Below are positions 6,095 to 32,000 of a stretch of 32,000 nucleotides of DNA, one piece after another. The position numbers and the translations under genes were made by a program. The notes beneath the pieces are model-generated. The model was not told where the DNA came from and did not search any database. It saw nothing but the letters and a program-made list of their open reading frames with translations. The stretch comes from Pyrodictium abyssi (GTDB taxonomy: Archaea; Thermoproteota; Thermoprotei_A; Sulfolobales; Pyrodictiaceae): the NCBI RefSeq assembly GCF_036323395.1, contig NZ_AP028907.1, forward strand, positions 2,040,001 through 2,072,000, in the 5' to 3' direction. Numbering within the stretch: position 1 is the stretch's first letter; every line of letters begins with the position of its first letter.

Positions 6095-6173
6095 TGGTGC
6101 GGCGGCCGGGATTTGAACCCGGGATCACCGGCTTGGGAGGCCGGCGTCCTAGTCCAGGCTAGACGACCGCCGC
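6095..6173 (-). tRNA. tRNA-Gly (anticodon CCC), CCA encoded, no intron
   Basis: The reverse complement folds by hand into a cloverleaf. Acceptor GCGGCGG pairs with CCGCCGC. D-stem GTCT pairs with GGAC. Anticodon stem CCGGC pairs with GCCGG, with loop CTCCCAA. T-arm is CCCGG-GTTCAAAT-CCCGG. Discriminator A is followed by CCA. Confidence 0.9.
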
Positions 6174-6873: not shown

Positions 6874-7372
6874 GACCTGCTCTATAAGCCGCCTAGTGAG
6901 CGACTAAGAGTAGAAGGCGGTGTTAGGGTGCCTAAGACCCGCTTTCTATCCCCACCTATGGTGTTTATGATGTGAGTGGGTTTGGATTTCGCAGGTGGTG
7001 CGGACTATTATTGTTACTATTCCCGCCATTCTAATCGCAGACTCTCAAGTAGTAGCTATGGGCTGTGAATCCCCGCTAGTACTCACGTACCACCATGTAC
7101 AGCGTTTGTATAGGGGACGTATATCCTTACATTTTATCTTACTCATGGTGTAATGTTCCACGACTCATGCTATAAGATGTGAGGCACCAAGACATTGGTT
7201 AGCATGAAGTCTAACAAGATAAACGTAAAAGACAAATAGATTAGAGTCTACAAGATCTCACCATGTTATTCAAAATTCATATAGAGATTTAAGACGTCGG
7301 GTAGCGAGTTGGGGTGGCTGCATTCCGGCCCTTCAGCGGAAGAAGGACTCCTCTAAGTTTTAATGAGCCTAC

Positions 7373-7400
7373 AGTTGCCAGTAATCCTCGGCAACTTTTT
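7373..7400 (+). terminator. Hairpin plus T5 run (terminator-like) inside the ORF-free AT-rich segment
   Basis: The stem agttgcc (7373-7379) pairs with ggcaact (7390-7396) across a 10-nt loop. The second arm runs into ttttt (7396-7400). Confidence 0.3.
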
Positions 7401-7484
7401 GTGAATCTGGTATGGCTTTTGGGCTGTGTATGGGCCCTATGAGCGTTTTAGGACTATTGTAGCGGCGTGTAGTGTGAAGCGTCG

Positions 7485-7844
7485 TTGTCTACTCTATTCA
7501 AGGATTCTAATAGTATTTCTCTAATAGGCTCTGGTAGATTTATCAACCTGTCTGATGCCAGGTTAGTTTCTGAATTGGTGGTTCGTCTGACCGGACTACG
7601 GACCAAGGTTAGGGTTGGTAGGCGTGGGGTCATAGTGATCCCTAAGGGTATTCGTGAGAGGCTCGGAATAGTGGAAGGTATGGTTCTCGAGCTGAGTGTT
7701 GAGGGTGACAGGATAGTTCTCCGTGCTAAGGATTTGTGGAGTGAGCTGAGAGAACGTGGTAAGAGGCTCAGAGTGAACATTGACGAAGCTGAGAAGGAAC
7801 TCGATGAGGATGAGGAGCGTTGGGTAGAAAGGCTAGAGCAGTAG
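7485..7844 (+). CDS. vapB: VapB-type antitoxin, AbrB/SpoVT (swapped-hairpin) DNA-binding domain
   Basis: Contains the AbrB-fold core VGRRGVIVIPKGIRERLGIVEGMVLELSVEGDRIVLR followed by an acidic tail. The true start is probably an internal GTG/TTG near 7574-7579. The gene overlaps the PIN gene start. Confidence 0.75.
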   Translation: MSTLFKDSNSISLIGSGRFINLSDARLVSELVVRLTGLRTKVRVGRRGVIVIPKGIRERLGIVEGMVLELSVEGDRIVLRAKDLWSELRERGKRLRVNIDEAEKELDEDEERWVERLEQ

Positions 7845-8272
7845 TAGACACCTACGCTATTATCGCTGACTTGACCGGCCAGGCTACGTCAAGAGCCGCC
7901 GAACTCCTCGAAGGAGTAAGGCTTGGAAGCATCGAGGGAATTCTGCACTATCTCGTAGTCTATGAGCTCTCCTACCACTGGAGGAGGGGCCGGCTACCTT
8001 TCAGAGATGAGGAGGAGTTACTGGATTTCATAGACTCGTATTTTACCGTAAAGGCGTTGGATAATGTTATCGCGGTAAAGGCTTCGGGGGTAAAGCTTCT
8101 CGGAGATCAGTTGCTAGCAAAAGCCGAGGACCCAAGGCTTCGCCGAAGGAGACTATCTGTAGCAGATGCAACAACGATAGCTATAGCCATGATGGAGAAC
8201 GCACCCATAGTAACAGGGGACGCCGACTTATCCTACGTCGCAAGAAATCTAGGCATTGGTATTATCTGGTAA
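7820..8272 (+). CDS. vapC: VapC-type toxin, PIN-domain ribonuclease
   Basis: PIN acidic residues are in context: VVDTYAII (D), VVYELSY (E), SVADATTIAIA (D), IVTGDADL (D). The 5' end overlaps vapB, the classic arrangement for a type II toxin-antitoxin pair. Confidence 0.8.
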   Translation: MGRKARAVVDTYAIIADLTGQATSRAAELLEGVRLGSIEGILHYLVVYELSYHWRRGRLPFRDEEELLDFIDSYFTVKALDNVIAVKASGVKLLGDQLLAKAEDPRLRRRRLSVADATTIAIAMMENAPIVTGDADLSYVARNLGIGIIW

Positions 8273-8337
8273 CGACATTGCGCTAAGCTATTTGATCTAA
8301 GCTAGTATATTGTAGAGTTTGATGATCTATAAGGAGC

Positions 8338-8386
8338 GGTCCTCCAAGCCAGTGATTCCGGGGTTCAAAATCCCGACCGCCGCACC
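8338..8386 (+). pseudogene. Degenerate copy of the 3' half of tRNA-Gly (anticodon stem through acceptor 3' strand)
   Basis: ggtcctccaagccagtgattccggggttcaaaatcccgaccgccgcacc aligns with the tRNA-Gly sense strand GGCCTCCCAAGCCGGTGATCCCGGGTTCAAATCCCGGCCGCCGCACC. There are about 6 mismatches and 2 single-base insertions, and the last 10 nt are identical. No matching 5' acceptor strand (GCGGCGG) lies upstream. Confidence 0.65.
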
Positions 8387-8582
8387 TCCCTCATGCCTTC
8401 GGAGCCGGAGGTTCCAGCTCCTAGCCCCGGCGGATCCGTCACGCAGTCATCTAGCCGGCTTATTCTACTCAAATCATAAGGATGTTGAGGCAGGACGTCT
8501 TTAGCTAGAACTCTTGTGGAGTGTTTATCCCTTCTAGCAGGAATTTGGATCTCCTAGCGATGGATAATGAAGCGGTGTAAGG

Positions 8583-9032
8583 CTAGCAGATATACTTTCT
8601 AGTGAGGCTACTTAGCTTGCTGCACAGCTTCTTTGTCTCCTCTATAAGGTCTTCGCGTATGCCGAAGTATATAGTACCGTCGAGCAAGGGACCTACAATG
8701 GTTGCATCTATCTGGTTCCTTGTAAGCTCCTCCACAATTCTCTCCGCTTCCTCGAGGCTTTCTACCTTGTAGCGCCTGTACTTGGCTACTACTATACCCC
8801 AGCAGCAGTCTGGCTTTACCCCTTCATCTCCTCGTGTAGGACCGCTGCTCCTTGGCTTGGGGAAGCAGTAGACCTCCAACTCTGTGCCGTCATCGAATAT
8901 GAGGTCGAATCCGTTGTCGCCTACCCTTGCTCCTACGACTTCCAGGCCTAGGAGCTTGCTAAGCTCTCTAGTAACCTCCTTCTTCCGGTCCTCCGATATA
9001 CCACCAAACATTACAGTTATATACAATCCCAA
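8583..9032 (-). CDS. Hypothetical protein, lower G+C, no recognisable family
   Basis: The 149-aa ORF (MGLYITVMFGGISEDRKKEV...) has a plausible protein-like composition and sits inside the low-G+C island. I recognise no motif. The start could instead be the internal MFGG. Confidence 0.5.
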   Translation of the reverse strand: MGLYITVMFGGISEDRKKEVTRELSKLLGLEVVGARVGDNGFDLIFDDGTELEVYCFPKPRSSGPTRGDEGVKPDCCWGIVVAKYRRYKVESLEEAERIVEELTRNQIDATIVGPLLDGTIYFGIREDLIEETKKLCSKLSSLTRKYIC

Positions 9033-22170: not shown

Positions 22171-22296
22171 GCGGATCCCGGCTTGGGGGCGCTGCAGGGC
22201 CTCGCGGACCCCACAGCATCCCCCAACGCGGCCGGCTTAACTTCCGGGTTCGACATGAGTCCGGGTGTTGCCCGGCCGCTATGGCCGGGTCCGGGT
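22171..22296 (-). rRNA. 5S ribosomal RNA
   Basis: The reverse complement reads ACCCGGACCCGGCCATAGCGGCCGGGCAACACCCGGACTCATGTCGAACCCGGAAGTTAAGCCGGCCGCGTTGGGGGATGCTGTGGGGTCCGCGAGGCCCTGCAGCGCCCCCAAGCCGGGATCCGC. It contains the universal 5S core GAACCCGGAAGTTAAGC and aligns along its length with my recollection of Sulfolobus 5S. Helix I pairs 5' CCCGG/CGGA with 3' CCGGG/TCCG. The ends are good to about +/-3 nt. Confidence 0.85.
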
Positions 22297-22318
22297 ACAC
22301 TGCCCCAGGATTCCCGGG

Positions 22319-22326
22319 ATATTTAA
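22319..22326 (-). promoter_or_regulatory. TATA box for the 5S rRNA gene
   Basis: On the minus strand, ttaaatat is centred about 27 nt upstream of the inferred 5S 5' end at 22296. This is the canonical archaeal TATA-to-TSS distance. Confidence 0.5.
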
Positions 22327-22378
22327 CGGCTCCTCTGCACCTAGGCATGAGTAGTGGTGGCCTGTCCTGCCCGGTAAC

Positions 22379-23269
22379 GTGCTAGATGCAGACGCTAGGC
22401 GGCTCGCTGAGAGGTTCTGCAGAGAAGAGATAACGGTCTACCACATCTACAGCTGGCTAGCCGAGAAGGAGAAGGATCCTGCCCGGCGCGAACACCTAAG
22501 AAGGCTCGCGGAGCAGGAGCGGCGGCACTACGAGTTCTGGAGCCGCGTCCTCGGTAGCAGCTGCTGGCCCTACGGGGTAACCATGAGGAGGATAATGCTG
22601 CTCTACCGCCTCCTAGGGCCTGTGTTCACGCTCCGGCTCCTAGAGCGCGACGAGGAAGCCACGATAGAGCAGTACCAGAGGTTCCTCAGCCGCATAGGCG
22701 ACGAGCAACTGCGCCGAGAGCTAGAGCAGATAATACGCGAGGAAGAGGAGCACGAGGAGACACTACTCAGCGGCATCGAGGACGCGCGTGTAAAGTACAT
22801 GGGGTTCATAGCCCTGGGCCTCGCCGACGCTATAGTGGAGATAACGGGCGTCCATGCTGGCTTCCTCGGCGCGACCTCGAGCACCCTGCTCGCTGGCGTC
22901 GCTGGGCTGGTTGTCGGCTTCTCCGCAGCACTCTCCATGGCCGGTGCAGCGTATCTCCAGGCTAAGCATGGCCGCGAGACACGCCCGGTCATAAGCGCCG
23001 GTGTGACCGGCGTATCGTACATAATATCCGTGATACTCCTAGCGCTCCCATACTTCCTGCTAGCCAGCATGCTCGAGGCGTTCACAGCGTCGCTGATCCT
23101 GGCGACCGTGATAATAGGGGGCTTCACGTACTTCAGCGTGGTTGTGCAGAACAAGCCGTTCCTCAAGGAGTTCCTCGAGAGCACCGGGCTTATGATAGGC
23201 ACGGCGCTTGGTAGCTACGCGTTCGGCAAGATACTAGGAAGCCTGCTAGGCGTCGAGATGGCCCTATAG
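22379..23269 (+). CDS. Erythrin-VIT1 fusion protein (ferritin-like domain plus CCC1/VIT1 iron transporter; MbfA-like)
   Basis: The N-terminal ferritin/rubrerythrin-like helices carry E..H pairs: EEITVYHIY, EQERRHYEFW, EEEEHEE. The C-terminal VIT1-type membrane domain reads GLADAIVEITGVHAGFLGA followed by several TM segments. Confidence 0.8.
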   Translation: MLDADARRLAERFCREEITVYHIYSWLAEKEKDPARREHLRRLAEQERRHYEFWSRVLGSSCWPYGVTMRRIMLLYRLLGPVFTLRLLERDEEATIEQYQRFLSRIGDEQLRRELEQIIREEEEHEETLLSGIEDARVKYMGFIALGLADAIVEITGVHAGFLGATSSTLLAGVAGLVVGFSAALSMAGAAYLQAKHGRETRPVISAGVTGVSYIISVILLALPYFLLASMLEAFTASLILATVIIGGFTYFSVVVQNKPFLKEFLESTGLMIGTALGSYAFGKILGSLLGVEMAL

Positions 23270-23293
23270 CTTACGGGCAGAGGCGTAGCCAGG

Positions 23294-23875
23294 GTGGAGG
23301 CACGCGCGTTGAGCAGGAGCAGCTACGATAGAATAGACGAGAGAGAGCTCGGCAAGACTGTGCAGATACTTTACGAGGCCTTCCAGTCCATAGAAGCAGT
23401 AGGCGGCAGCCTCTCGCCCTTTGTGCCAACGCAGGACTACATTATAGAGCCCATACTACAGCTACTAGAAGCCATGGCCCGCGGGAGGCTCAACGAGACG
23501 GGGCAACGGAGGCAGCCTGTGTACTACGAGCCCGGTTGTGGCTCGGGAACAGTGGCGGAGAAGGCTGCAGAGAGAGGCTTCTACGTCATATGCCTGGAGC
23601 TTGACGAGTATCTCGCCCGCAGCGCGGCCCAAAGGCTCGCCAGGAGCCCCCATGCAGACACGGTGGTAGGCGACCTCTCGGTGTTCCGGCCGCGAGCAGT
23701 GGACGCGGTGTACGCCTACCTGCTTCCCCGGGCGGTACAGCGGGTCCTCGAGGCACTAAAGGGCGCAAAGGCTCCCCTGCTGAGCCTTGACTACCCCGCC
23801 GAGGACGATGGAGGGGCACTGTCGGCTGCGAGACTGGAGATAGAAGCCAGAAGTGTTTATACGTATGAGCTCTAG
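23294..23875 (+). CDS. Class I SAM-dependent methyltransferase
   Basis: Motif I is VYYEPGCGSGTVAEKAAERG, followed by an acidic post-I residue in VICLELD. Length is 193 aa. Confidence 0.7.
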   Translation: MEARALSRSSYDRIDERELGKTVQILYEAFQSIEAVGGSLSPFVPTQDYIIEPILQLLEAMARGRLNETGQRRQPVYYEPGCGSGTVAEKAAERGFYVICLELDEYLARSAAQRLARSPHADTVVGDLSVFRPRAVDAVYAYLLPRAVQRVLEALKGAKAPLLSLDYPAEDDGGALSAARLEIEARSVYTYEL

Positions 23876-24468
23876 GACTCACCCGGCGCTGTGAGCTGCC
23901 CTCGGCTTGGACGGTAGCGGCTACAAAGCACGGAGAGTATCCTCTCGCGATTCGGCTCTAGGTCCAGCCTCGTGAATACCATGTCCCTGCCATAGCCTAC
24001 TACGCGGCCACCGAGCTTATCCACCATTATCCTCCTCATGGGTATGTTGCTTGGATCGAAGTAGGCCTCTACAGCCTTGTACCCGTTCCCGAGGAGGCAT
24101 AGAGCTAGGAGCGCAGTCAGTGTTGTACCGAGCCCCCGGCCCTGTAGGTCGTCTCGGACCACGATGCCTAGCTCTGCTATGCCGCGTATACCGGTGTCAT
24201 ACGCCTCGATGCTAGCTACGGCTTCTCCGTCCCGTAGCCCGACTATTACCAGCCGCGCGTTGGACAGTATATCGTCCACCACTGGTTCCCAGTACTTGAT
24301 TGGCCTCAGGAACCTCAGCAGCACAGTGTCTAGGCTGAGCTTGCTGAAGAGGCTTAGCAGTAGGCTCCGTGCCTCCTCACCCGGTGCTGCAATCTCGACT
24401 GTTGTTCCATCCTTGAGGATAGCTGTGCCTGGTAGACTGCTGCACGTGAGCTTCGCTTGCCCATTCAA
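23872..24468 (-). CDS. GNAT-family N-acetyltransferase
   Basis: The acetyl-CoA-binding motif A is IVVRDDLQGRGLGTTLTALL (Q/RxxGxG/A). Length is 198 aa. Confidence 0.75.
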   Translation of the reverse strand: MNGQAKLTCSSLPGTAILKDGTTVEIAAPGEEARSLLLSLFSKLSLDTVLLRFLRPIKYWEPVVDDILSNARLVIVGLRDGEAVASIEAYDTGIRGIAELGIVVRDDLQGRGLGTTLTALLALCLLGNGYKAVEAYFDPSNIPMRRIMVDKLGGRVVGYGRDMVFTRLDLEPNRERILSVLCSRYRPSRGQLTAPGES

Positions 24469-24588
24469 GGAGCTTCTTCTCCTCCAGACCCATAGGTCAT
24501 ATCATGGCTGGAGCCTGATTAAAGCTCAGCGCCCACGGAGCCCTAGGGAGCTCAGTAGCCAGGCCCTCAGCGCGTACACTCGGCGCCC

Positions 24589-25389
24589 CTAGGGCTTAGG
24601 AGGAGCTGCGGAGCCGAGCGGCTCCTCCCGGAGTAGTGGCGCGTGCACGTACAGGTATAGCCCGGTAGAGCGGCTCCTAGCTATGAGCGGTGTGAGCACG
24701 GCTCCTAGCTCGCTTAGCCATGCACTGAGCCGCTCCGACGACACGACGACGTCCGCTACAACGGCTTCGCGTCTATCGCCGCGGCAGAATAGCCTTCCGT
24801 CCATGCAGGGCTCGATCCCCGAGACCTCGACGGTATAGGTCGCTAGCGGCTGGGTGGGCGGAGGCGCTAACGGGGGTAGCAGGAGTAGCACTCGTAGCCA
24901 AGTAGACTGCCGCCTTACCGGGGTACCCTGGATGATATGAGCCTCTACGGGGAACACGGTGTCTCCGTGGACAGCTTCTAGGGTTTCCCGCTTTGCTCCC
25001 AGAAGCTGTTCAAGCCTATAGGCTATGGACGCTAGCGTGCCAGCATCGTGGTAGTAGAGCTCGGCAGTCAGCAAGCCGTCCTTGCACCTTGTGGGCAGTG
25101 CTAGGCCGCCCGCCTCGGCGAGGCAGGCGCCGCGGAGCTGGATGCTCCCGGCGAATATGCCTCCAGCCATTAGGCCGTGGAGACGCCCGCCATAGGCCAG
25201 GTCGCCTGCAGCAGCATAGGGGACTCTAGACGGGACAGCAGCCGCAGCCAGTACTTCCTCGGCCATCTGCTGTGCCCCAGGTATAGTGGCTGCAGCGTGT
25301 CCAGGGGGACAGCTATATCTGGGCCCGTAGCGCGCTAGACCGGATATGCACAGAGGGCTGAAGCCCATACTAAGCAGCTCTGCCGGCAC
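24589..25389 (-). CDS. Hypothetical protein, divergent from the MoxR-module operon
   Basis: The 266-aa ORF has genome-typical codon usage. No family recognised. Confidence 0.45.
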   Translation of the reverse strand: MPAELLSMGFSPLCISGLARYGPRYSCPPGHAAATIPGAQQMAEEVLAAAAVPSRVPYAAAGDLAYGGRLHGLMAGGIFAGSIQLRGACLAEAGGLALPTRCKDGLLTAELYYHDAGTLASIAYRLEQLLGAKRETLEAVHGDTVFPVEAHIIQGTPVRRQSTWLRVLLLLPPLAPPPTQPLATYTVEVSGIEPCMDGRLFCRGDRREAVVADVVVSSERLSAWLSELGAVLTPLIARSRSTGLYLYVHAPLLREEPLGSAAPPKP

Positions 25390-25440
25390 TCAGCTTGCGG
25401 TGCTGGCCGCGACGAACCACGGACACGATGGTGGCTAGCC

Positions 25441-28400
25441 GTGTACCCAGAGCAGGGGGACGCTAGGATACAGCCAGCGGCTCTACTGCTGCTCCTGCTA
25501 GCGCTGGCCCCTCTACTGCAAGCGCCCATCCACGTGGTTCATGCCCATGCAGAGTCAGTGGACCTAGCTGACCAGCTCCGCCGCATACTAGACCAGCTCT
25601 ACAACAACTCCATAGGCTACGAGAAGGCAGCTAGGCTCTACAACAGCGTGGCATCGTGCTCGCGGCCCCCCGTCTCCGAGGCGGCCTCGCAGGCCGCCAA
25701 GGCGCTAGAATCCGCGGCAGAGGGCAAGGCTACAGCACAGCAGGTAGAGGAGGCGCTGCTGAGCTACGCCGCGGTGGTGGGGAGGCACCTGGACGCGCTA
25801 GCCAGCTGCAGCTCGGCCACGGTCTACCAGAGCCTCCTGCTAGCCTTCGCGGTCCCGACGCCCGCAGGCCTCCTCCCGGCCACAGCTCCCACGGACGCGA
25901 TGAGGCAGGCAGCGGCGGAGATAGCCTACAGTATAGTCCGCCAGCTCGCTGGCAGCGAGGAGCTAGCCAGCCAGGCATCACTCATAGCACGTGTAGACCC
26001 CTACGCGGCTCTGCTCCTAGCAGGGCTGGCTGGCAGAGTAGACCAGGGCTACTGGGCGTCCGTGAACGATAACACTACGAGCACGAGGGGGCTCTGCCTC
26101 GTCTACTCCCTCGCAGCGACAGACACGGTGCCCCAGGAAGCTGCAGCGGCGGCTCTAGCGGCGATAGCGGGGGCTAGCTACGCCTACGGCCCCGGCGCGG
26201 TGCTAGCGGAGGCAGCCAGCGCCCTCAAATCCGGGGACCTCTTCTGCTACACGGCTATCGTGAACCTGCTAGACGCCATGTACCGGGGCTACGTGGAGAA
26301 GCTGCTTCCCCTCTACAGGCTCCCCGGCAACTACACGCCTCCCCCGGAGCTGCTCCAGGCCCCCAGGATAGGCGGCATTGACGCGCTACGGCTAGTAGCG
26401 GCGACGGCCTCCGGGGAGGGGCTGACCCCGGCACTTGCCAGGATGGGTGGAGGAGTTGTAGCGAGCCCCTCGGGCGTAGCAGCTGTGCTGCGTGCATCCG
26501 GTGCACCGGTCCCCGAGACCCCCGGCGAGAACGGCTACTGCCTCGTCTTCAAGACAGCGTTGAAGAGCCTGCTCGAGGGCACTGTGGCGGAGACGCAGCA
26601 GGCCTGGAGCCTAGCGGCGGCAGCTGCGAGCCTATGCTACGCCCAGACCGGCTCCCCACAGCCCCTGATAGCCCTACTCCTCTTCCAGCCATTCGTCGAG
26701 ATAGACCCCTGGCTCGTAGCAGAAGGCGCAGCCAAGCAGGCACGGGTAGCTGGCGACCCGGGGCTCCAGGCCTACGCATCCAAGGCTTCTAGCCTACTCT
26801 GGAGCGGTAGGCTAGACGAGGCAGCCTCGCTCCAGCCGCCCTCCTCGCCCAACAGCGCTCTCGTCCACAGCCTACTCGTAGCAGCGGTGGAGGGGGTCAA
26901 GGAGGGCTTCAACCCCCTACTAGTAGAGGTTGACAATGCCACAGCGCAGCAACTCCTAGAGGCGGCGGGGCTCCCGTCGCCCCGCGATGCCGTGCTCGCA
27001 GCACTCGACCCCGCTAGGGTCATGGACGACATAGCCAGGGATAACACCACGCCTCCCCTAGAGCGCCTCGGCATATTCGCCCGGGCGGCCTCACTACGCC
27101 CCAGCAGCAGCGGTTACCTGCTCGACTACGCGGCTGTACGCGCGGTATCGTGGCTCGTAGTGCACATGTACCCGTGGCTCCGCGGCGGCGAGCAGCTGCC
27201 GCCGCCCGGCCAGCAGCCGGAGCCGGGCACCCTGCTCTCCTGGGCCCTTGGCTACGTGACCACGGCAGCGCCCCCGCAGCAGGAGGCACCGGCAGCGGGG
27301 CAGGAGCCCAGCGCGGGGGGCCAGACAGGCGGCCAGCCGGCGGCAACGCCCGAGAGCCCGGCCAGCAGCACGTCCAACGAGACGAGCATGACAGGCCCGG
27401 GCAGCGGGGCCGAGGCGGCGAAGGCAGCCCAGGAGGCAGAGCAGCTCGCAGACCAGCTAGAAGCCCTCGCCCAGGAGATAAAGAGCAGCCTCGGCGGCCA
27501 GGGCCAGGCAGAAGCCGTTGCCGGGCTCCTAGAGCAGATAGCCCAGAGCCTGCGCGAGGGAGACTACGCCTCGGCCGTGGCTGCAAGCCAGCAGCTACTA
27601 CAGATGCTCAACAGCGGGGACACAATCCCAGTGAGCCTCCTAGCCATGCTAGCCCAGAGCGGAGTAGATCCCCGCGAGGCAGCCCAGCTGCTCGCAATGG
27701 CGGCGAGTATACGCTTCAGCAACACCACGGTCACGATAGACCTAAGGGAGGCCAGCCAGCTAGCGGAAACACTCTCCAGTATAGACCTGGCCCAGGAAGG
27801 GCAGACCGGGCTAGAGAAGATCGCAGAGATAGCGGCGGACATAGGGAAAGCTGCCGCAGAGGCGGCCGGCCAAGCCACGGCCGGGCCACAGGCTGGAGGC
27901 GGCGCGGGGTCGGAGGGGGCGGCGGAGCTGCTCGAGATAAAGGGCCTAGGCGACCTAGCGGCCAAGCTATACAGCATACTCGGGGGACAGCCGTCAGGCG
28001 AACCAGCCGGGGCCCTGGACGCCATCGAGCTAACCGGCCCGGGCGGCGAGGGGGGCGAGAGCAACGCTACAGCCGGCCAGGAGCCGCCTATCCCGGAACC
28101 TCCCCGGCTCCCCAGTCTGCCGGGCCTCCCCGGGCTCGGCGACCTAGCTGTAGTTGCTGCCCCGCTAGCCCTGGCCGGTATAGCGATGCTAGCTGCTACC
28201 CGCTACCGTGAGCTAGCAGCTGCAGCAGCCAGAGTGCGGCTGGCTAGGCTAGAGCGCCGCCTATCCCGGGTGCCGGGGGCCGCGCAGCGGCCCGAGGAGA
28301 CCCGGAGGCTGGTAGTAGAGGTGTTTAGCCAGATACTCCGCGTGTACGAGACCGTCTACGCGCCACGGGCGGCTAGCGAGACTCACCGCGAGTACGCGGC

Positions 28401-28599
28401 CAAGCTTCCCGGGGACGAGAGGAGCCGCTACACTCCGGCGGCCAGCGTCTACGAGAAGGCGAAGTTTAGCAGCGAGCCCGTGAGCGAGAGTGACGTGGAG
28501 AAGCTTCAGAAGATGCTGTCCGAGATAAGACGTGCACTAGGCGCTGCGGGCGGGAGCCTGGCGGCAGCGGTGGCGAAGCTACTGGGTGGCAGGAAGTGA
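25441..28599 (+). CDS. Giant Ala-rich membrane protein: signal peptide, helical ectodomain of about 900 aa, one TM segment, cytoplasmic DUF4129-like tail
   Basis: The N-terminus has the hydrophobic stretch IQPAALLLLLLALAPLLQAP. The ectodomain is long, Ala/Leu/Gln-rich, with several N-x-S/T sequons. The TM segment is LAVVAAPLALAGIAMLAA. The tail reads ...LVVEVFSQILRVYETVYAPRAASETHREYAAKL...YTPAASVYEKAKFSSEPVSESDVEKL, resembling DUF4129 (..T.rEy...l....ye.a.y...p.s.e). The stop overlaps the next start (GTGA). Confidence 0.7.
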   Translation: MYPEQGDARIQPAALLLLLLALAPLLQAPIHVVHAHAESVDLADQLRRILDQLYNNSIGYEKAARLYNSVASCSRPPVSEAASQAAKALESAAEGKATAQQVEEALLSYAAVVGRHLDALASCSSATVYQSLLLAFAVPTPAGLLPATAPTDAMRQAAAEIAYSIVRQLAGSEELASQASLIARVDPYAALLLAGLAGRVDQGYWASVNDNTTSTRGLCLVYSLAATDTVPQEAAAAALAAIAGASYAYGPGAVLAEAASALKSGDLFCYTAIVNLLDAMYRGYVEKLLPLYRLPGNYTPPPELLQAPRIGGIDALRLVAATASGEGLTPALARMGGGVVASPSGVAAVLRASGAPVPETPGENGYCLVFKTALKSLLEGTVAETQQAWSLAAAAASLCYAQTGSPQPLIALLLFQPFVEIDPWLVAEGAAKQARVAGDPGLQAYASKASSLLWSGRLDEAASLQPPSSPNSALVHSLLVAAVEGVKEGFNPLLVEVDNATAQQLLEAAGLPSPRDAVLAALDPARVMDDIARDNTTPPLERLGIFARAASLRPSSSGYLLDYAAVRAVSWLVVHMYPWLRGGEQLPPPGQQPEPGTLLSWALGYVTTAAPPQQEAPAAGQEPSAGGQTGGQPAATPESPASSTSNETSMTGPGSGAEAAKAAQEAEQLADQLEALAQEIKSSLGGQGQAEAVAGLLEQIAQSLREGDYASAVAASQQLLQMLNSGDTIPVSLLAMLAQSGVDPREAAQLLAMAASIRFSNTTVTIDLREASQLAETLSSIDLAQEGQTGLEKIAEIAADIGKAAAEAAGQATAGPQAGGGAGSEGAAELLEIKGLGDLAAKLYSILGGQPSGEPAGALDAIELTGPGGEGGESNATAGQEPPIPEPPRLPSLPGLPGLGDLAVVAAPLALAGIAMLAATRYRELAAAAARVRLARLERRLSRVPGAAQRPEETRRLVVEVFSQILRVYETVYAPRAASETHREYAAKLPGDERSRYTPAASVYEKAKFSSEPVSESDVEKLQKMLSEIRRALGAAGGSLAAAVAKLLGGRK

Positions 28600-29957
28600 T
28601 AGGCCTCCGGGGCTTCCTCGCAGGGCTGGCCATAGTAGCCCTAGTAGCGGCTATACTGGCTGCACCCAAGGCTATCAAGCTGGGTACGGCGCCGGAGCTC
28701 CGCCTAGGCTCGCCCGGCGACACGGGGCCCAGCGGGCACAGCCTGTTAGCCCAGGTGTTATCCTCCCACGGGCTCCGTGTTGGGCTCTCATATAAGCCGC
28801 CCAGGGACTGGAACGGCTCATCGCTGGTTTACATTGTCGCGGGGCCCACCGAGTGCAGGACTGAGCTGCTCCAGGCGGTGGCGGAGGAGGCCCGGCGGCT
28901 CGCCTCCCAGGGCCTCCGCGTAGGCGTGGTGATAGCGGACGAGGGGCCGTGCGGCAAAACCCTGCTAGATATGCTGGACGCGCCCTTCCTCAGCACGGTC
29001 TCCGGTGCGCCCAGTGAGCCGTGGCTAGCACTCTACCAGGGAGGTGAACCCGTCCTCTACGCGATGTACAGCGTACCAACCATAACGTACATGGACGAGG
29101 GCTGGAGGCAGCTGGCCGTATCGCTCTACCCGCGTGGGCTCCCAGCAGCCCTAGAATGGCGAGGCAGCGTAGACGTCGTCTACATACCTGATAGCCACGT
29201 GTTCACGAACATGGTGATGAGCGCTGCCAACGAGACGGGGCTAGGCAACGCAGAGCTAGCAGTAACACTCGTAGAGAAGCTCGGCGGTGCAGACGCGCTA
29301 GTGCTCATGCCACTAGGCTTCTACCGGCTGATAAACCCCAGTATACCCCTGGTAGCCTACCTCCAACCCGGCGTCATTATAATCCGCCTAGTGGAGTGGC
29401 TAGCGGGCCTCGAGAAGACTATAGTAGAGGCTATGCTCTCCAACCCTCTCGCAGCCACGGTACTAGTGATAGGCGTGATGTCGGTACTCTACATTGTGTT
29501 CGCCCAAGCCTCGGGCAAGAAATGGGCAGCCGAGAAGCCGCCCGAGCAAGCCCAGCCGCCACGGCTCCTCGGCACATCCCCAGTGCTAGAGAAGCTACAA
29601 CGAGGCGTAGAGCTGTCCAGGCAGGAGGCCCGCCAAGCCCTAGCAGCGCTATACGAACTCGTGGACGAGGTCCTCAGGGTGCGCGTCGGCGCAGGGCTCT
29701 CGGAAGTACTAGAAGACGACCGGCTGCTGGAGAGGCTAGCCCGCGAGGCCGGGATAGACCCCGGCGAACTCCGCCGCGGGCTCGAGGCTCTGCACCGGCT
29801 CTACACGGCTAAGATAAGGGAGGGCCGGCTTCTACCACTCGTCGTGTCCTGGAAGCGTAGGCTATACTACGTGCTGGAGCGCGTAGAGCCACTACTCGAG
29901 TCCATAGGTGCTGGCCTGGAGGAGGCTAGGAGCATTGAGTACAGCCTCGCCCGCTAG
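28596..29957 (+). CDS. DUF4350-like membrane protein
   Basis: The N-terminal TM segment is [18 protein letters not shown]. It is followed by [20 protein letters not shown]...SLVYIVAGP...GVVIADEG...[29 protein letters not shown], then a second TM and a helical C-terminal domain. This pattern matches my memory of the DUF4350 proteins that precede MoxR in DUF4129-DUF4350-MoxR-DUF58 operons. Confidence 0.55.
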
Positions 29958-29961
29958 GCTT

Positions 29962-30888
29962 GTGGCCGGCCTCGCGGAGAAGGTGGCGCGGGAGGTATCA
30001 AAGGTAGTATACGGGCTAGAGGACGAGCTAAAGATAATACTGGCATCGCTGCTCGTCGGCGGCCATGTGCTCCTCGAAGGCATGCCCGGGGTAGCCAAGA
30101 CGACGCTAGCCAAGGCCCTCGCATCCAGCATGAGGCTCGAGTTCCGGAGGATACAGTTCACTCCCGACCTGCTACCCAGCGACATAATAGGCACGATGAT
30201 CTACGACCAGAGGAGCGGCGAGTTCAGGCTACGCCGCGGCCCGGTGTTCACCAACATCCTCCTCGCCGACGAGATTAACCGCGCCTCGCCCCGGACCCAG
30301 AGCGCGCTCCTAGAGGCGATGCAGGAGCGCCAGGTAACCATAGAGGGCAACACGCTCCCTCTGCCCGAGCCATTCCTGGTCATAGCCACGCAGAACCCCA
30401 TAGAGCTCGAAGGGACGTTCCCGCTCCCCGAGGCCCAGATAGACAGGTTCCTCGTCAAGGTATCCATACCAATGCCGGGCCGGGAGGTTCTGCGCAGGAT
30501 ACTCCGAGGCCTAGAAACCATCGAGAAGTGGCCCGTAGAGCCCGTGGCGAACCGCGACGAGATACTGGAGGCCCGTAGAGCCATATGGCGCGTCGAGGTC
30601 AGCGACCCCGTAGTAGACTACATCATAGACCTCGTGGAGGAGACCCACCGCCACCCCGACGTGAGGCTAGGAGCCAGCCCCAGAGCAGCCATAGCACTGC
30701 AGCAGCTAGCCCGGGCCCTCGCAGCCATGGAGGGCAGGGGCTACGTCATACCAGACGACGTGAAGACCGCGGCCCGGTACGTCCTTGTACACCGTATAAT
30801 CCTCCGGCCCGAGGCCGAGGCGGAGGGCCGCCGGCCCGAAGACGTGGTAGAGTCGGTACTGTCCAGCGTCCGCGTACCAGTACCGTAG
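29962..30888 (+). CDS. moxR: MoxR-family AAA+ ATPase (AAA_3)
   Basis: Walker A is [18 protein letters not shown] and Walker B is [31 protein letters not shown]. Sensor segments VIATQNPIE and PEAQIDRF follow. The C-terminal lid reads [14 protein letters not shown] 29962 lies right after the upstream stop, whereas the track's 29908 start would overlap that gene by 50 nt. Confidence 0.9.
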
Positions 30889-30970
30889 AGAAGCCTCCGG
30901 GGGACCGGCGGAGCCGGGGAGCAGGAGCGCCTTGGCCGAACAGAGCCTCTTTGACAGGATAAGCGAGCTC

Positions 30971-32000
30971 ATGGCCCCCGTGACGCCGCGCGGCCATGCC
31001 GTGCTCTTCCTGTCGGCGAGCCTTCTCGCGGCGGGGCTCCTGGCGGGGCCGGGGAGAGCCCCAGCCCTTATGTCTGCTGGGCTAGCGCTCCTGCTCCTCG
31101 TGATAGTAGAGCGCGAGGTGTTCCTAGCCCGTGCGGCAGCGCTCTCCCGTATCGACGCCAGGTGGGTGATCGAGCACCCGCTCGTAGAGGGGCGTCCCTC
31201 CCTCGTGAAGCTGGTGCTGGAGAACAGGTCGCTCACCCCTATAGAGCACCTGGAGGTGTACGACAACCCTCCACGCCTATTCCACTGGGCCGGCGAGGCC
31301 CCGCCGCGCGCAGTGGTAGCCCTCCCGGCCATGGGCGTGGTGGAGGTCAGCTACACGGTAGTGCCGGTCGTTGGGCGCCACGAGTGGGGAGGCCCCCTAA
31401 GGCTCGTAGCAGAGGATGTACTCGGCTTCTTCCGTGCCGAGAGGCTCGTAGACCAGGGGCTCCCCGTGGTGAACGTCCAGCCCCGGCTACTGGACGTGCC
31501 CCGGCGCCGCGCGGCTCTCCCCACGGTGCTCCAGCCTGGCGGTGTAGCGAAGCTGCGCCGCCGCGGCGTCGGCTCCGAGATAATGGAGCTACGCGAGTAC
31601 ACGCCCGACGACGATATACGCCTCGTCGACTGGAAGGCCTCGGCCCGCGCTGGCCGCCTAATGGTCAAGGTGTTTGAGCAGGAGTCAGTGCTCCGCGTAG
31701 CAGTGGTTGTGGACGCCCACCCATCGATGTTCCGTGGCGTGCTCGGCGAGACCAAGATAGAGTACGCGGCCCGCCTAGCAGCGTCTATCGCCGAGTACCT
31801 TGCCCGCCGCGGCGACGTCTACCGAGTCTACCTCGCCGACCCCAGCGGCCGGATGTACTCGACTCCGTGGCTCCACGGCCGCGGGAGCGGTGCGCTCGCC
31901 CGCCGCTTCATAGCCGAGAAGCTCTCGTGGCCCCGTAGCCCAGGGCAAGCCCCGGAGCCGCGGCGCCGCGCCAACGCGATAGTGGAGGCACTCCTGTCCA
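30971..32000 (+). CDS. DUF58 (vWA-like) protein, partial; continues past the right edge
   Basis: Hand translation gives MAPVTPRGHAVLFLSASLLAAGLLAG (TM)...VVEVSYTVVPVVGRHEWGGPLRLVAEDVLGFF...GSEIMELREYTPDDDIRLVDWKASARAGRLMVKVFEQESVLRVAVVVDA.... This includes the DUF58 hallmark (EfrglReY.pGD..R.IdWkatAR.g.l.vre.e.e). It is absent from the ORF track because it has no stop in the window. An alternative TTG start lies at 30932. Confidence 0.8.
   Translation, partial: MAPVTPRGHAVLFLSASLLAAGLLAGPGRAPALMSAGLALLLLVIVEREVFLARAAALSRIDARWVIEHPLVEGRPSLVKLVLENRSLTPIEHLEVYDNPPRLFHWAGEAPPRAVVALPAMGVVEVSYTVVPVVGRHEWGGPLRLVAEDVLGFFRAERLVDQGLPVVNVQPRLLDVPRRRAALPTVLQPGGVAKLRRRGVGSEIMELREYTPDDDIRLVDWKASARAGRLMVKVFEQESVLRVAVVVDAHPSMFRGVLGETKIEYAARLAASIAEYLARRGDVYRVYLADPSGRMYSTPWLHGRGSGALARRFIAEKLSWPRSPGQAPEPRRRANAIVEALLS

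Follow-up and report, generated by a model that had tools for sequence, protein, structure and literature searches.

What do the four co-directional genes at the right-hand end of a 32,000-nucleotide (nt) stretch of the Pyrodictium abyssi genome encode, and has a system of this kind been described before? The stretch (hereafter the window, to which all nucleotide positions refer) contains the genes g1 to g4, the last of them cut at the window edge (position 32000), and a sequence-only reading had taken them as a four-gene operon for an undescribed system. We lean, with moderate confidence, to the view that they are the first four genes of a six-gene operon for a membrane-embedded envelope complex and its MoxR/vWA remodelling module, and that this operon is a member of the DUF4350 (arCOG01314)-MoxR-vWA system predicted from comparative genomics by Makarova, Galperin and Koonin in 2015 (PMC5898192). 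The four genes, with protein lengths in amino acids (aa), are:

25441-28599, + strand: g1, DUF4129 membrane protein, 1052 aa
28596-29957, + strand: g2, divergent DUF4350 protein, 453 aa, GTG start
29935-30888, + strand: g3, MoxR-type AAA+ ATPase, 317 aa from TTG 29935
30932-32000, + strand: g4, DUF58 (vWA-like) protein, start at TTG 30932 or ATG 30971, truncated by the window edge

The listing of open reading frames (ORFs) and direct reading of the sequence both gave four co-directional ORFs running from 25441 to the window edge, and the tight coupling first reported for them was borne out at each junction. The GTG start of g2 lies within the tetranucleotide GTGA at 28596-28599 that also holds the g1 stop. 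The g2 stop codon is TAG 29955-29957, and three starts are candidates for g3: GTG 29908, TTG 29935 and GTG 29962. The spacing previously given between the g2 stop and GTG 29962 was confirmed by reading the sequence; the 317-aa form from TTG 29935, which overlaps g2 by 23 nt, is the choice of the gene callers in all orthologues. The DUF58 gene follows g3 by 82 nt if it starts at ATG 30971 and by 43 nt if it starts at TTG 30932, in agreement with the upper limit of 82 nt proposed earlier. The hyperthermophilic archaeal setting had also been recognized correctly, g2 being 100% identical to an NCBI Pyrodictium abyssi protein.

The right flank beyond position 32000 was read from a proxy, L003, a 23-kb contig that has 95.7% nucleotide identity to positions 22262-32000 of the window and is collinear with them. 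In L003 the full-length DUF58 gene (467 aa) overlaps by 4 nt with a fifth gene, g5, for a 409-aa polytopic membrane protein; g6, for a 92-aa two-helix protein, begins 8 nt past g5 and is followed by a convergent branched-chain-type ABC transporter. Proteins of 375-415 aa with 6-8 transmembrane helices and of 80-97 aa with 2 take the g5 and g6 positions in L003 and in eleven other archaeal loci. Thus, the four-gene unit drawn from the window has to be extended to six, with g5 and g6 as conserved partners in the same operon. Neither has a relative in Pfam, in PADLOC or among named proteins, and an AlphaFold2 model of g5 (6 sequences) was unusable, with a mean predicted local distance difference test score (pLDDT) of 46.9.

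The order g1 to g6 was found in P. occultum (L001), L003 and P. delaneyi (L004, L005) and, as far as the contigs reach, in the metagenome-assembled Pyrodictiaceae loci L006-L011 and the Desulfurococcales locus L012. The same six genes stand in the same order on a distant archaeal contig of 42% GC (L016, L017), where g1 is shorter (342 aa) and g2 matches DUF4350 confidently, so that the synteny of orthologues, which had been put forward as a check on the operon, is retained both among Pyrodictium species and in L016. The junctions in the window (−4, −23 and +43 nt) have the same pattern in L003, L001, L004, L008 and L016. Because identical genes, order and overlaps recur in many independent loci, the operon is far beyond chance. 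The genome scan used a DUF58 alignment, and the three cultured Pyrodictium genomes were not among its returns. Relative to L003, the ratio of non-synonymous to synonymous substitution rates (dN/dS) was 0.12-0.32 over g1-g4, with g2, g3 and g4 at 0.12-0.17, and all four window genes are under purifying selection.

A permuted version was found in L019 (4778-10780), which encodes in turn MoxR, a 340-aa DUF4129 protein, a 363-aa polytopic protein, a g6 homologue (79 aa), a DUF4350-like protein (481 aa) and DUF58. All of its junctions overlap, four of the five by 4 nt and the fifth by 53 nt, and the 363-aa polytopic protein has no detectable homology to the Pyrodictiaceae g5. This permutation points to a functional module rather than an inherited gene order. 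As a separate observation, in L021 (1-4098) DUF4129-like and polytopic proteins and homologues of g6 and g2 are encoded ahead of a PspC-domain protein, with MoxR and DUF58 not adjacent; the locus may hold a module that has been reduced or split.

The assignment of g2 came through its family. The direct Pfam match to DUF4350 was below threshold (16.4 bits against a cut-off of 30.4, E = 0.012), and a word-indexed search of 5.8 billion proteins gave four relatives, all of them Pyrodictium-like. A HMMER profile search of 1.84 billion cluster representatives returned 106 homologues at E <= 1e-3, and 36 of the best 60 were DUF4350-positive (best E = 1e-13). When nine Pyrodictiaceae-type g2 proteins were compared by hhalign with 18 longer homologues, 17 of which are DUF4350-positive at E <= 1e-3, the match had a probability of 100% (E = 3.4e-53, 431 columns) and spanned the whole protein, from the anchor helix through the outward-facing domain and the second transmembrane helix to the cytoplasmic tail. 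Because of this full-length match to a DUF4350-positive set, the assignment of g2 to a divergent branch of the DUF4350 family holds on sequence grounds; the label 'DUF4350-like' of the sequence-only reading therefore stands for the family relationship and fails as a direct Pfam match. A tblastn search of plasmids with a bona fide DUF4350 homologue gave no match.

Hydropathy places an N-terminal anchor at aa 6-24 of g2 and a second transmembrane helix at aa 285-303 (nt 29448-29504), in keeping with the two-helix topology suggested earlier. The DUF4350 (GldG-like) domain between them (~aa 25-284) is predicted to face outward and to be followed by a conserved cytoplasmic helical tail (aa 304-453). 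Both cysteines and both N-glycosylation (N-x-S/T) sequons lie in the outward-facing domain, and the near-invariant positions include D42, G47, C87, C119, N205 and E273. Among the best 60 homologues, one matches IFT52_GIFT and two match ABC_transp_aux. Homology between the cytoplasmic tails of g2 and g1 was considered and rejected (hhalign probability 5%).

The giant g1 protein does carry the proposed DUF4129-like tail on a single-pass membrane protein: Pfam places DUF4129 (PF13559) at aa 964-1024 (nt 28330-28512) with 32.4 bits against a cut-off of 24.8, and the orthologues score 38.5 bits; SETHREY and YEKAKFS are invariant motifs of this domain. A signal peptide (~aa 1-37) is followed by a conserved outward-facing domain (~aa 38-575) with six conserved cysteines, a low-complexity/coiled-coil linker (~aa 576-900), a transmembrane helix (aa 902-920, nt 28144-28200, from hydropathy) and an Arg-rich stretch. 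All eight sequons and all six cysteines lie upstream of the transmembrane helix, and the six cysteines are kept in an orthologue of 30% identity. We infer from these features that g1 is a type I, single-pass, predicted glycoprotein with a cytoplasmic DUF4129 tail. AlphaFold2 gave an all-helical outward-facing domain with a mean pLDDT of 58 and patches of 70-92; a Foldseek search of the model against the PDB returned only generic helical-repeat proteins (best E 0.49).

Orthologues of g1 with 970-1171 aa occur in Pyrodictiaceae only. The ~340-aa forms of other lineages align with just the last ~190 aa, comprising the juxtamembrane segment, the transmembrane helix and DUF4129, so that by sequence comparison the ~860-aa outward-facing part, made up of the ~570-aa domain and the linker, is a Pyrodictiaceae-specific addition. 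Such a lineage-specific part suggests a genus-specific surface interaction. Region by region, the dN/dS of g1 against L003 is lowest in the tail (0.16), followed by the outward-facing domain (0.23), and reaches 0.65 in the linker.

The g3 product is the canonical MoxR AAA+ ATPase that it was first taken to be, with Pfam matches to AAA_3 (223 bits) and AAA_lid_2 (89 bits) and with all catalytic motifs intact: Walker A (GMPGVAKT), Walker B (LLADEINRA), sensor 1 (ATQNP), the arginine in AQIDRF and sensor 2 (GASPRA). Among solved structures, the closest by sequence is 2R44 (E = 1.7e-85). On the region matched by AAA_3, bpMoxR (PF20030) also scores, with 35.2 bits against a cut-off of 27, and the chelatase subunits BchD and ChlI are weakly similar (68 bits against a cut-off of 500). 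The protein has no hydrophobic helices, cysteines or sequons and is predicted to be soluble.

The DUF58 assignment of g4 was likewise upheld (PF01882, 63.7 bits against a cut-off of 23.4; orthologues 66 bits), and no solved structures related to it by sequence were found. The protein begins with a hairpin of two transmembrane helices, which is followed by a beta-rich domain and then a vWA-like domain. In the orthologue alignment, conserved basic residues lie on both outer flanks of the hairpin and the loop between the helices is short and neutral. Because of this charge pattern, and because g4 has no cysteines and only one sequon, a cytoplasmic location of its bulk is favoured, and the beta-rich, putatively Ig-like part and the vWA part are probably on the same side as MoxR. 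The suggestion that g3 and g4 are two cytoplasmic chaperone-like partners thus fits the soluble MoxR, and does not fit DUF58, which is tethered to the membrane by its hairpin.

Several of these features are already present in the 2015 description. In section 3.2 and Table 2 of Makarova et al. (PMC5898192), arCOG01314 (DUF4350) is a membrane-anchored protein with an extracellular flavodoxin-like (GldG-like) domain, and its operons usually hold a MoxR-type ATPase of COG0714 and an immunoglobulin (Ig)-vWA protein. Further members of the neighbourhoods listed there are S-layer-like Ig proteins and membrane proteins with '2-3 TMs' or '5 TMs' (transmembrane segments), and a novel secretion or membrane-remodelling complex was proposed. 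With the neighbourhood already defined, the claim of an undescribed system was overstated. The P. abyssi operon agrees with that system in its membrane-anchored DUF4350 protein, the adjoining MoxR/GvpN-type (COG0714) ATPase and DUF58, and its two-helix g6 and six- to eight-helix g5 are candidates for the '2-3 TMs' and '5 TMs' accessory proteins, for which arCOG03875, arCOG07126 and arCOG11232 come into question. It differs in that arCOG02487, arCOG02884 and pfam07760, frequent there though not universal, are absent from the window operon, L001, L003, L004, L016 and L019; the neighbouring genes there have unrelated Pfam matches or none. The P. abyssi g2 also carries an extra cytoplasmic tail of ~150 aa, and the DUF4129 subunit, which here bears the giant Pyrodictiaceae-specific outward-facing part, is not named in that section or table.

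The earlier statement that no role is established for the DUF4129/DUF4350 version agrees with the literature: a full-text search found no functional study of DUF4129 or DUF4350, and searches for later experimental work on the arCOG01314 system and for Pyrodictium locus tags found none. A paper on tat-fimbriae proved unrelated.

A topology model for the complex was derived from hydropathy, the distribution of cysteines and sequons, and the charge around the helices. The helical, Cys-paired, sequon-rich domain of g1 and the GldG-like domain of g2 would face outward, g5 would be the membrane core, and the cytoplasmic face would hold the DUF4129 tail, the helical tail of g2, both ends of g6, the Ig-like and vWA parts of DUF58, and MoxR. 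A mechanism can be modelled by analogy on the pairs NorQ/NorD (PMC9976466), RavA/ViaA (PMC3893208) and CbbQ/CbbO (PMC4660213). A MoxR hexamer would dock on the vWA domain of the membrane-tethered DUF58, and DUF58, as adaptor, would grip a cytoplasmic tail of the complex, that of DUF4129 and/or that of g2. ATP hydrolysis would then remodel, assemble or switch the g1/g2/g5/g6 complex and so control the outward-facing domains at the cell surface, the clients most likely being the operon's own membrane proteins. The authors of the NorQ/NorD work (PMC9976466) propose binding of a hexamer to one vWA protein as a general mode. The P. abyssi operon shares with the three pairs a MoxR-class ATPase with all catalytic motifs beside a vWA-type partner. 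Its adaptor differs in being a membrane-tethered DUF58 with an incomplete metal-ion-dependent adhesion site (MIDAS), and its presumed clients are membrane proteins of the same operon rather than a soluble or respiratory enzyme.

Several points weigh against an envelope complex that is remodelled by MoxR and DUF58. The MIDAS motif of g4 is DAHPS, not DxSxS. Across the orthologues its Asp is conserved and the second Ser position is mostly S/T, but H, W, L, T, A or R takes the place of the first Ser, and this makes classical metal-mediated ligand binding uncertain; the motif reads DCSPS or DQRSS in two bacterial DUF58 proteins aligned with them. The Ig-vWA protein is called 'likely secreted' in the 2015 text cited above (PMC5898192), in contrast to the cytoplasmic placement of DUF58 here, and a secreted protein would be separated from MoxR. 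The Ig-like S-layer proteins of the 2015 neighbourhoods are absent from the operon. Two metagenome-assembled loci, L011 (1-2135, Pyrodictiaceae) and L013 (3760-6342, Hyperthermus), have g2 followed directly by DUF58, with gaps of ~38 and ~57 nt, and neither contig (8.4 and 16 kb) carries a MoxR gene anywhere. Thus the module does not always include a gene for the ATPase, which in these genomes may be dispensable or encoded elsewhere. Finally, neither the AlphaFold2 models (pLDDT 47 for g5 and 58 for g1) nor the Foldseek search with g1 gave a fold-level clue to any activity.

The alternative that survives best, possible in our judgement though unlikely, is a true protein secretion or translocation system, in which g5 would be the channel, the GldG-like g2 an outer scaffold, and MoxR/DUF58 would power or gate the export of substrates encoded elsewhere, or of g1. 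This is the reading that Makarova et al. preferred in 2015 (PMC5898192), drawing on the connection of GldG with gliding and type IX secretion and on the preponderance of membrane and extracellular components. A conserved polytopic g5 without a known family would suit a channel, as the DUF4350 homologues that match IFT52_GIFT or ABC_transp_aux would suit the proposed role of g2, but no similarity of g5 to known channel families was detected. MoxR ATPases, moreover, are known as remodelling chaperones rather than translocation motors (PMC9976466) and are missing from L011 and L013, and no candidate cargo gene is conserved beside the module in P. occultum, L003, P. delaneyi, L016 or L019.

We would go further only speculatively, and think it rather improbable, in proposing that the six genes form a distinct and ancient archaeal envelope machine, a new ATP-controlled apparatus for surface assembly or secretion, whose giant Pyrodictiaceae g1 anchors or organizes a genus-specific extracellular matrix such as the cannulae or the S-layer.

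Less probable again is a role in surface sensing or conflict, as in other MoxR-vWA systems, in which the outward-facing domain of g1 would sense an external signal or an invader, and MoxR/DUF58 would set the threshold and relay the signal inward. MoxR-vWA modules do act in sensing pathways, g3 has a bpMoxR match, though a weak one and far below its AAA_3 score, and the outward-facing domain of g1 is variable in sequence as well as in length, MoxR being 72% identical across lineages in which g1 runs from 340 to 1171 aa. The ternary conflict systems of Kaur et al. 2020 (PMC7159879) and the Esr pathway (bioRxiv 10.64898/2026.09.08.750141) likewise combine a MoxR-vWA pair with a large variable surface protein, but their beta-propeller, kinase, phosphatase, FHA, transglutaminase and effector genes are absent here; specifically, no kinase, FHA, toxin, nuclease or beta-propeller gene lies in or beside the P. 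occultum, L003, P. delaneyi, L016 and L019 loci. The genes stand in a stable chromosomal context, with conserved housekeeping synteny in three Pyrodictium species rather than in a variable island, PADLOC gave only generic AAA+ similarity, and the dN/dS of the outward-facing domain of g1 carries no sign of diversifying selection.

A chaperone that inserts metals or cofactors, as NorQ/NorD, CoxD/E and the chelatases do, and so matures a metal site in one of the membrane proteins, seems to us decidedly improbable. Characterized MoxR/vWA pairs often do insert metals (PMC9976466), and the weak resemblance of g3 to BchD and ChlI points the same way, but the chelatase scores are far under their cut-offs. 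In g5 and g6 no conserved His/Cys pattern of a metal site is evident, the only conserved cysteines being the outward-facing pairs, and no redox enzyme is conserved nearby.

Hardly any probability remains for a TgpA/YebA-like transglutaminase system with its enzyme just past the window edge, where the sequence-only reading had expected a transglutaminase-like gene. In favour of it, DUF4129 typically occupies the C-terminus of membrane transglutaminases. The yeaC-yeaD-yebA genes of B. subtilis form a MoxR-DUF58-transglutaminase operon, and TgpA of P. aeruginosa has DUF4129 at its cytoplasmic C-terminus. The two genes upstream of tgpA (PA2875-PA2874) encode MoxR and DUF58 proteins. TgpA is essential, is co-transcribed with these two genes and has an active periplasmic transglutaminase domain (PMC3507681), and a similar MoxR-DUF58-transglutaminase operon is found in the Bifidobacterium PFNA cluster (PMC8430577, PMC12067865). 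The P. abyssi operon resembles these in having MoxR, DUF58 and then membrane protein(s), and in its large extracytoplasmic domain. However, no transglutaminase core (PF01841) or DUF3488 was matched by Pfam at E <= 1 in g1, g2, g5 or g6, and DUF4129 sits on a non-enzymatic, helical predicted glycoprotein. In place of the enzyme, the operon has the DUF4350 protein, g5 and g6; g5 follows DUF58 in L003 and in every locus that extends past DUF58, g6 comes next in L003, P. occultum, P. delaneyi and other loci, and in the Pyrodictium loci the operon ends at ABC transporter genes of convergent orientation. The transglutaminase reading is thus essentially refuted. The UniRef entries for the g1 orthologues of P. 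delaneyi (P0007) and P. occultum (P0009) are named 'Protein-glutamine gamma-glutamyltransferase...', a name that speaks for a transglutaminase; no transglutaminase core is detectable in them, and the name probably stems from the DUF4129 domain alone and is misleading.

The least credible proposal makes g2 a GldG-like accessory subunit for the ABC transporter next to the operon. The outward-facing domain of g2 does belong to the superfamily of GldG, ABC_transp_aux and IFT52 GIFT proteins (from DUF4350, the HHpred result given in the 2015 section and the few PF09822/PF23355 homologues), and in Pyrodictium a branched-chain-type transporter lies just downstream. However, that transporter is on the opposite strand, and L016, L019 and L021 keep the module but lack the transporter; the operon itself contains neither an ABC ATPase nor a permease. 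Unlike the other proteins of the superfamily, g2 adds a second transmembrane helix and a cytoplasmic tail.

With the six-gene membrane complex and its MoxR/vWA module as the preferred reading, three things are new: the conserved six-gene core, including two families without a Pfam match; the permuted and MoxR-less versions of the module; and the large lineage-specific outward-facing part of the Pyrodictiaceae DUF4129 subunit. Pairs of MoxR and DUF58 with DUF4350 and DUF4129 partners occur widely, and the present work sharpens their parts list; it also indicates that the transglutaminase association does not extend to the archaeal branch studied. A new envelope-assembly or secretion system, if that is what the operon encodes, would fill a gap in archaeal cell-surface biology. 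Pyrodictium is, to our knowledge, not genetically tractable; a tractable archaeon with the module would allow the defined protein set and the topology model to be tested.

Other features of the window are recorded here for completeness. A divergent gene of 225 aa without a Pfam match (24592-25266, − strand) lies 174 nt upstream of g1; its position is kept in three Pyrodictium species and not in other Pyrodictiaceae loci. In the intergenic region between it and g1, a TATA-like CTATATC was noted by eye at ~25312-25321. A stand-alone 5S rRNA gene is found at 22173-22292 (− strand, 67.6 bits), with no 16S or 23S rRNA gene in the window. Positions 7001-9000 form an islet of low GC (0.47-0.50, against 0.59-0.68 over the rest of the window), which contains an overlapping VapBC-type pair on the + strand (ORFs 7485-7844 and 7820-8272; MazE/AbrB-type antitoxin, 39.8 bits, and PIN-domain toxin, 38.6 bits) and a 149-aa ORF without a Pfam match (8583-9032, − strand). 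Since a tRNA gene (6098-6173, − strand, 61.8 bits) lies ~1 kb upstream, the islet may be a small acquired element.

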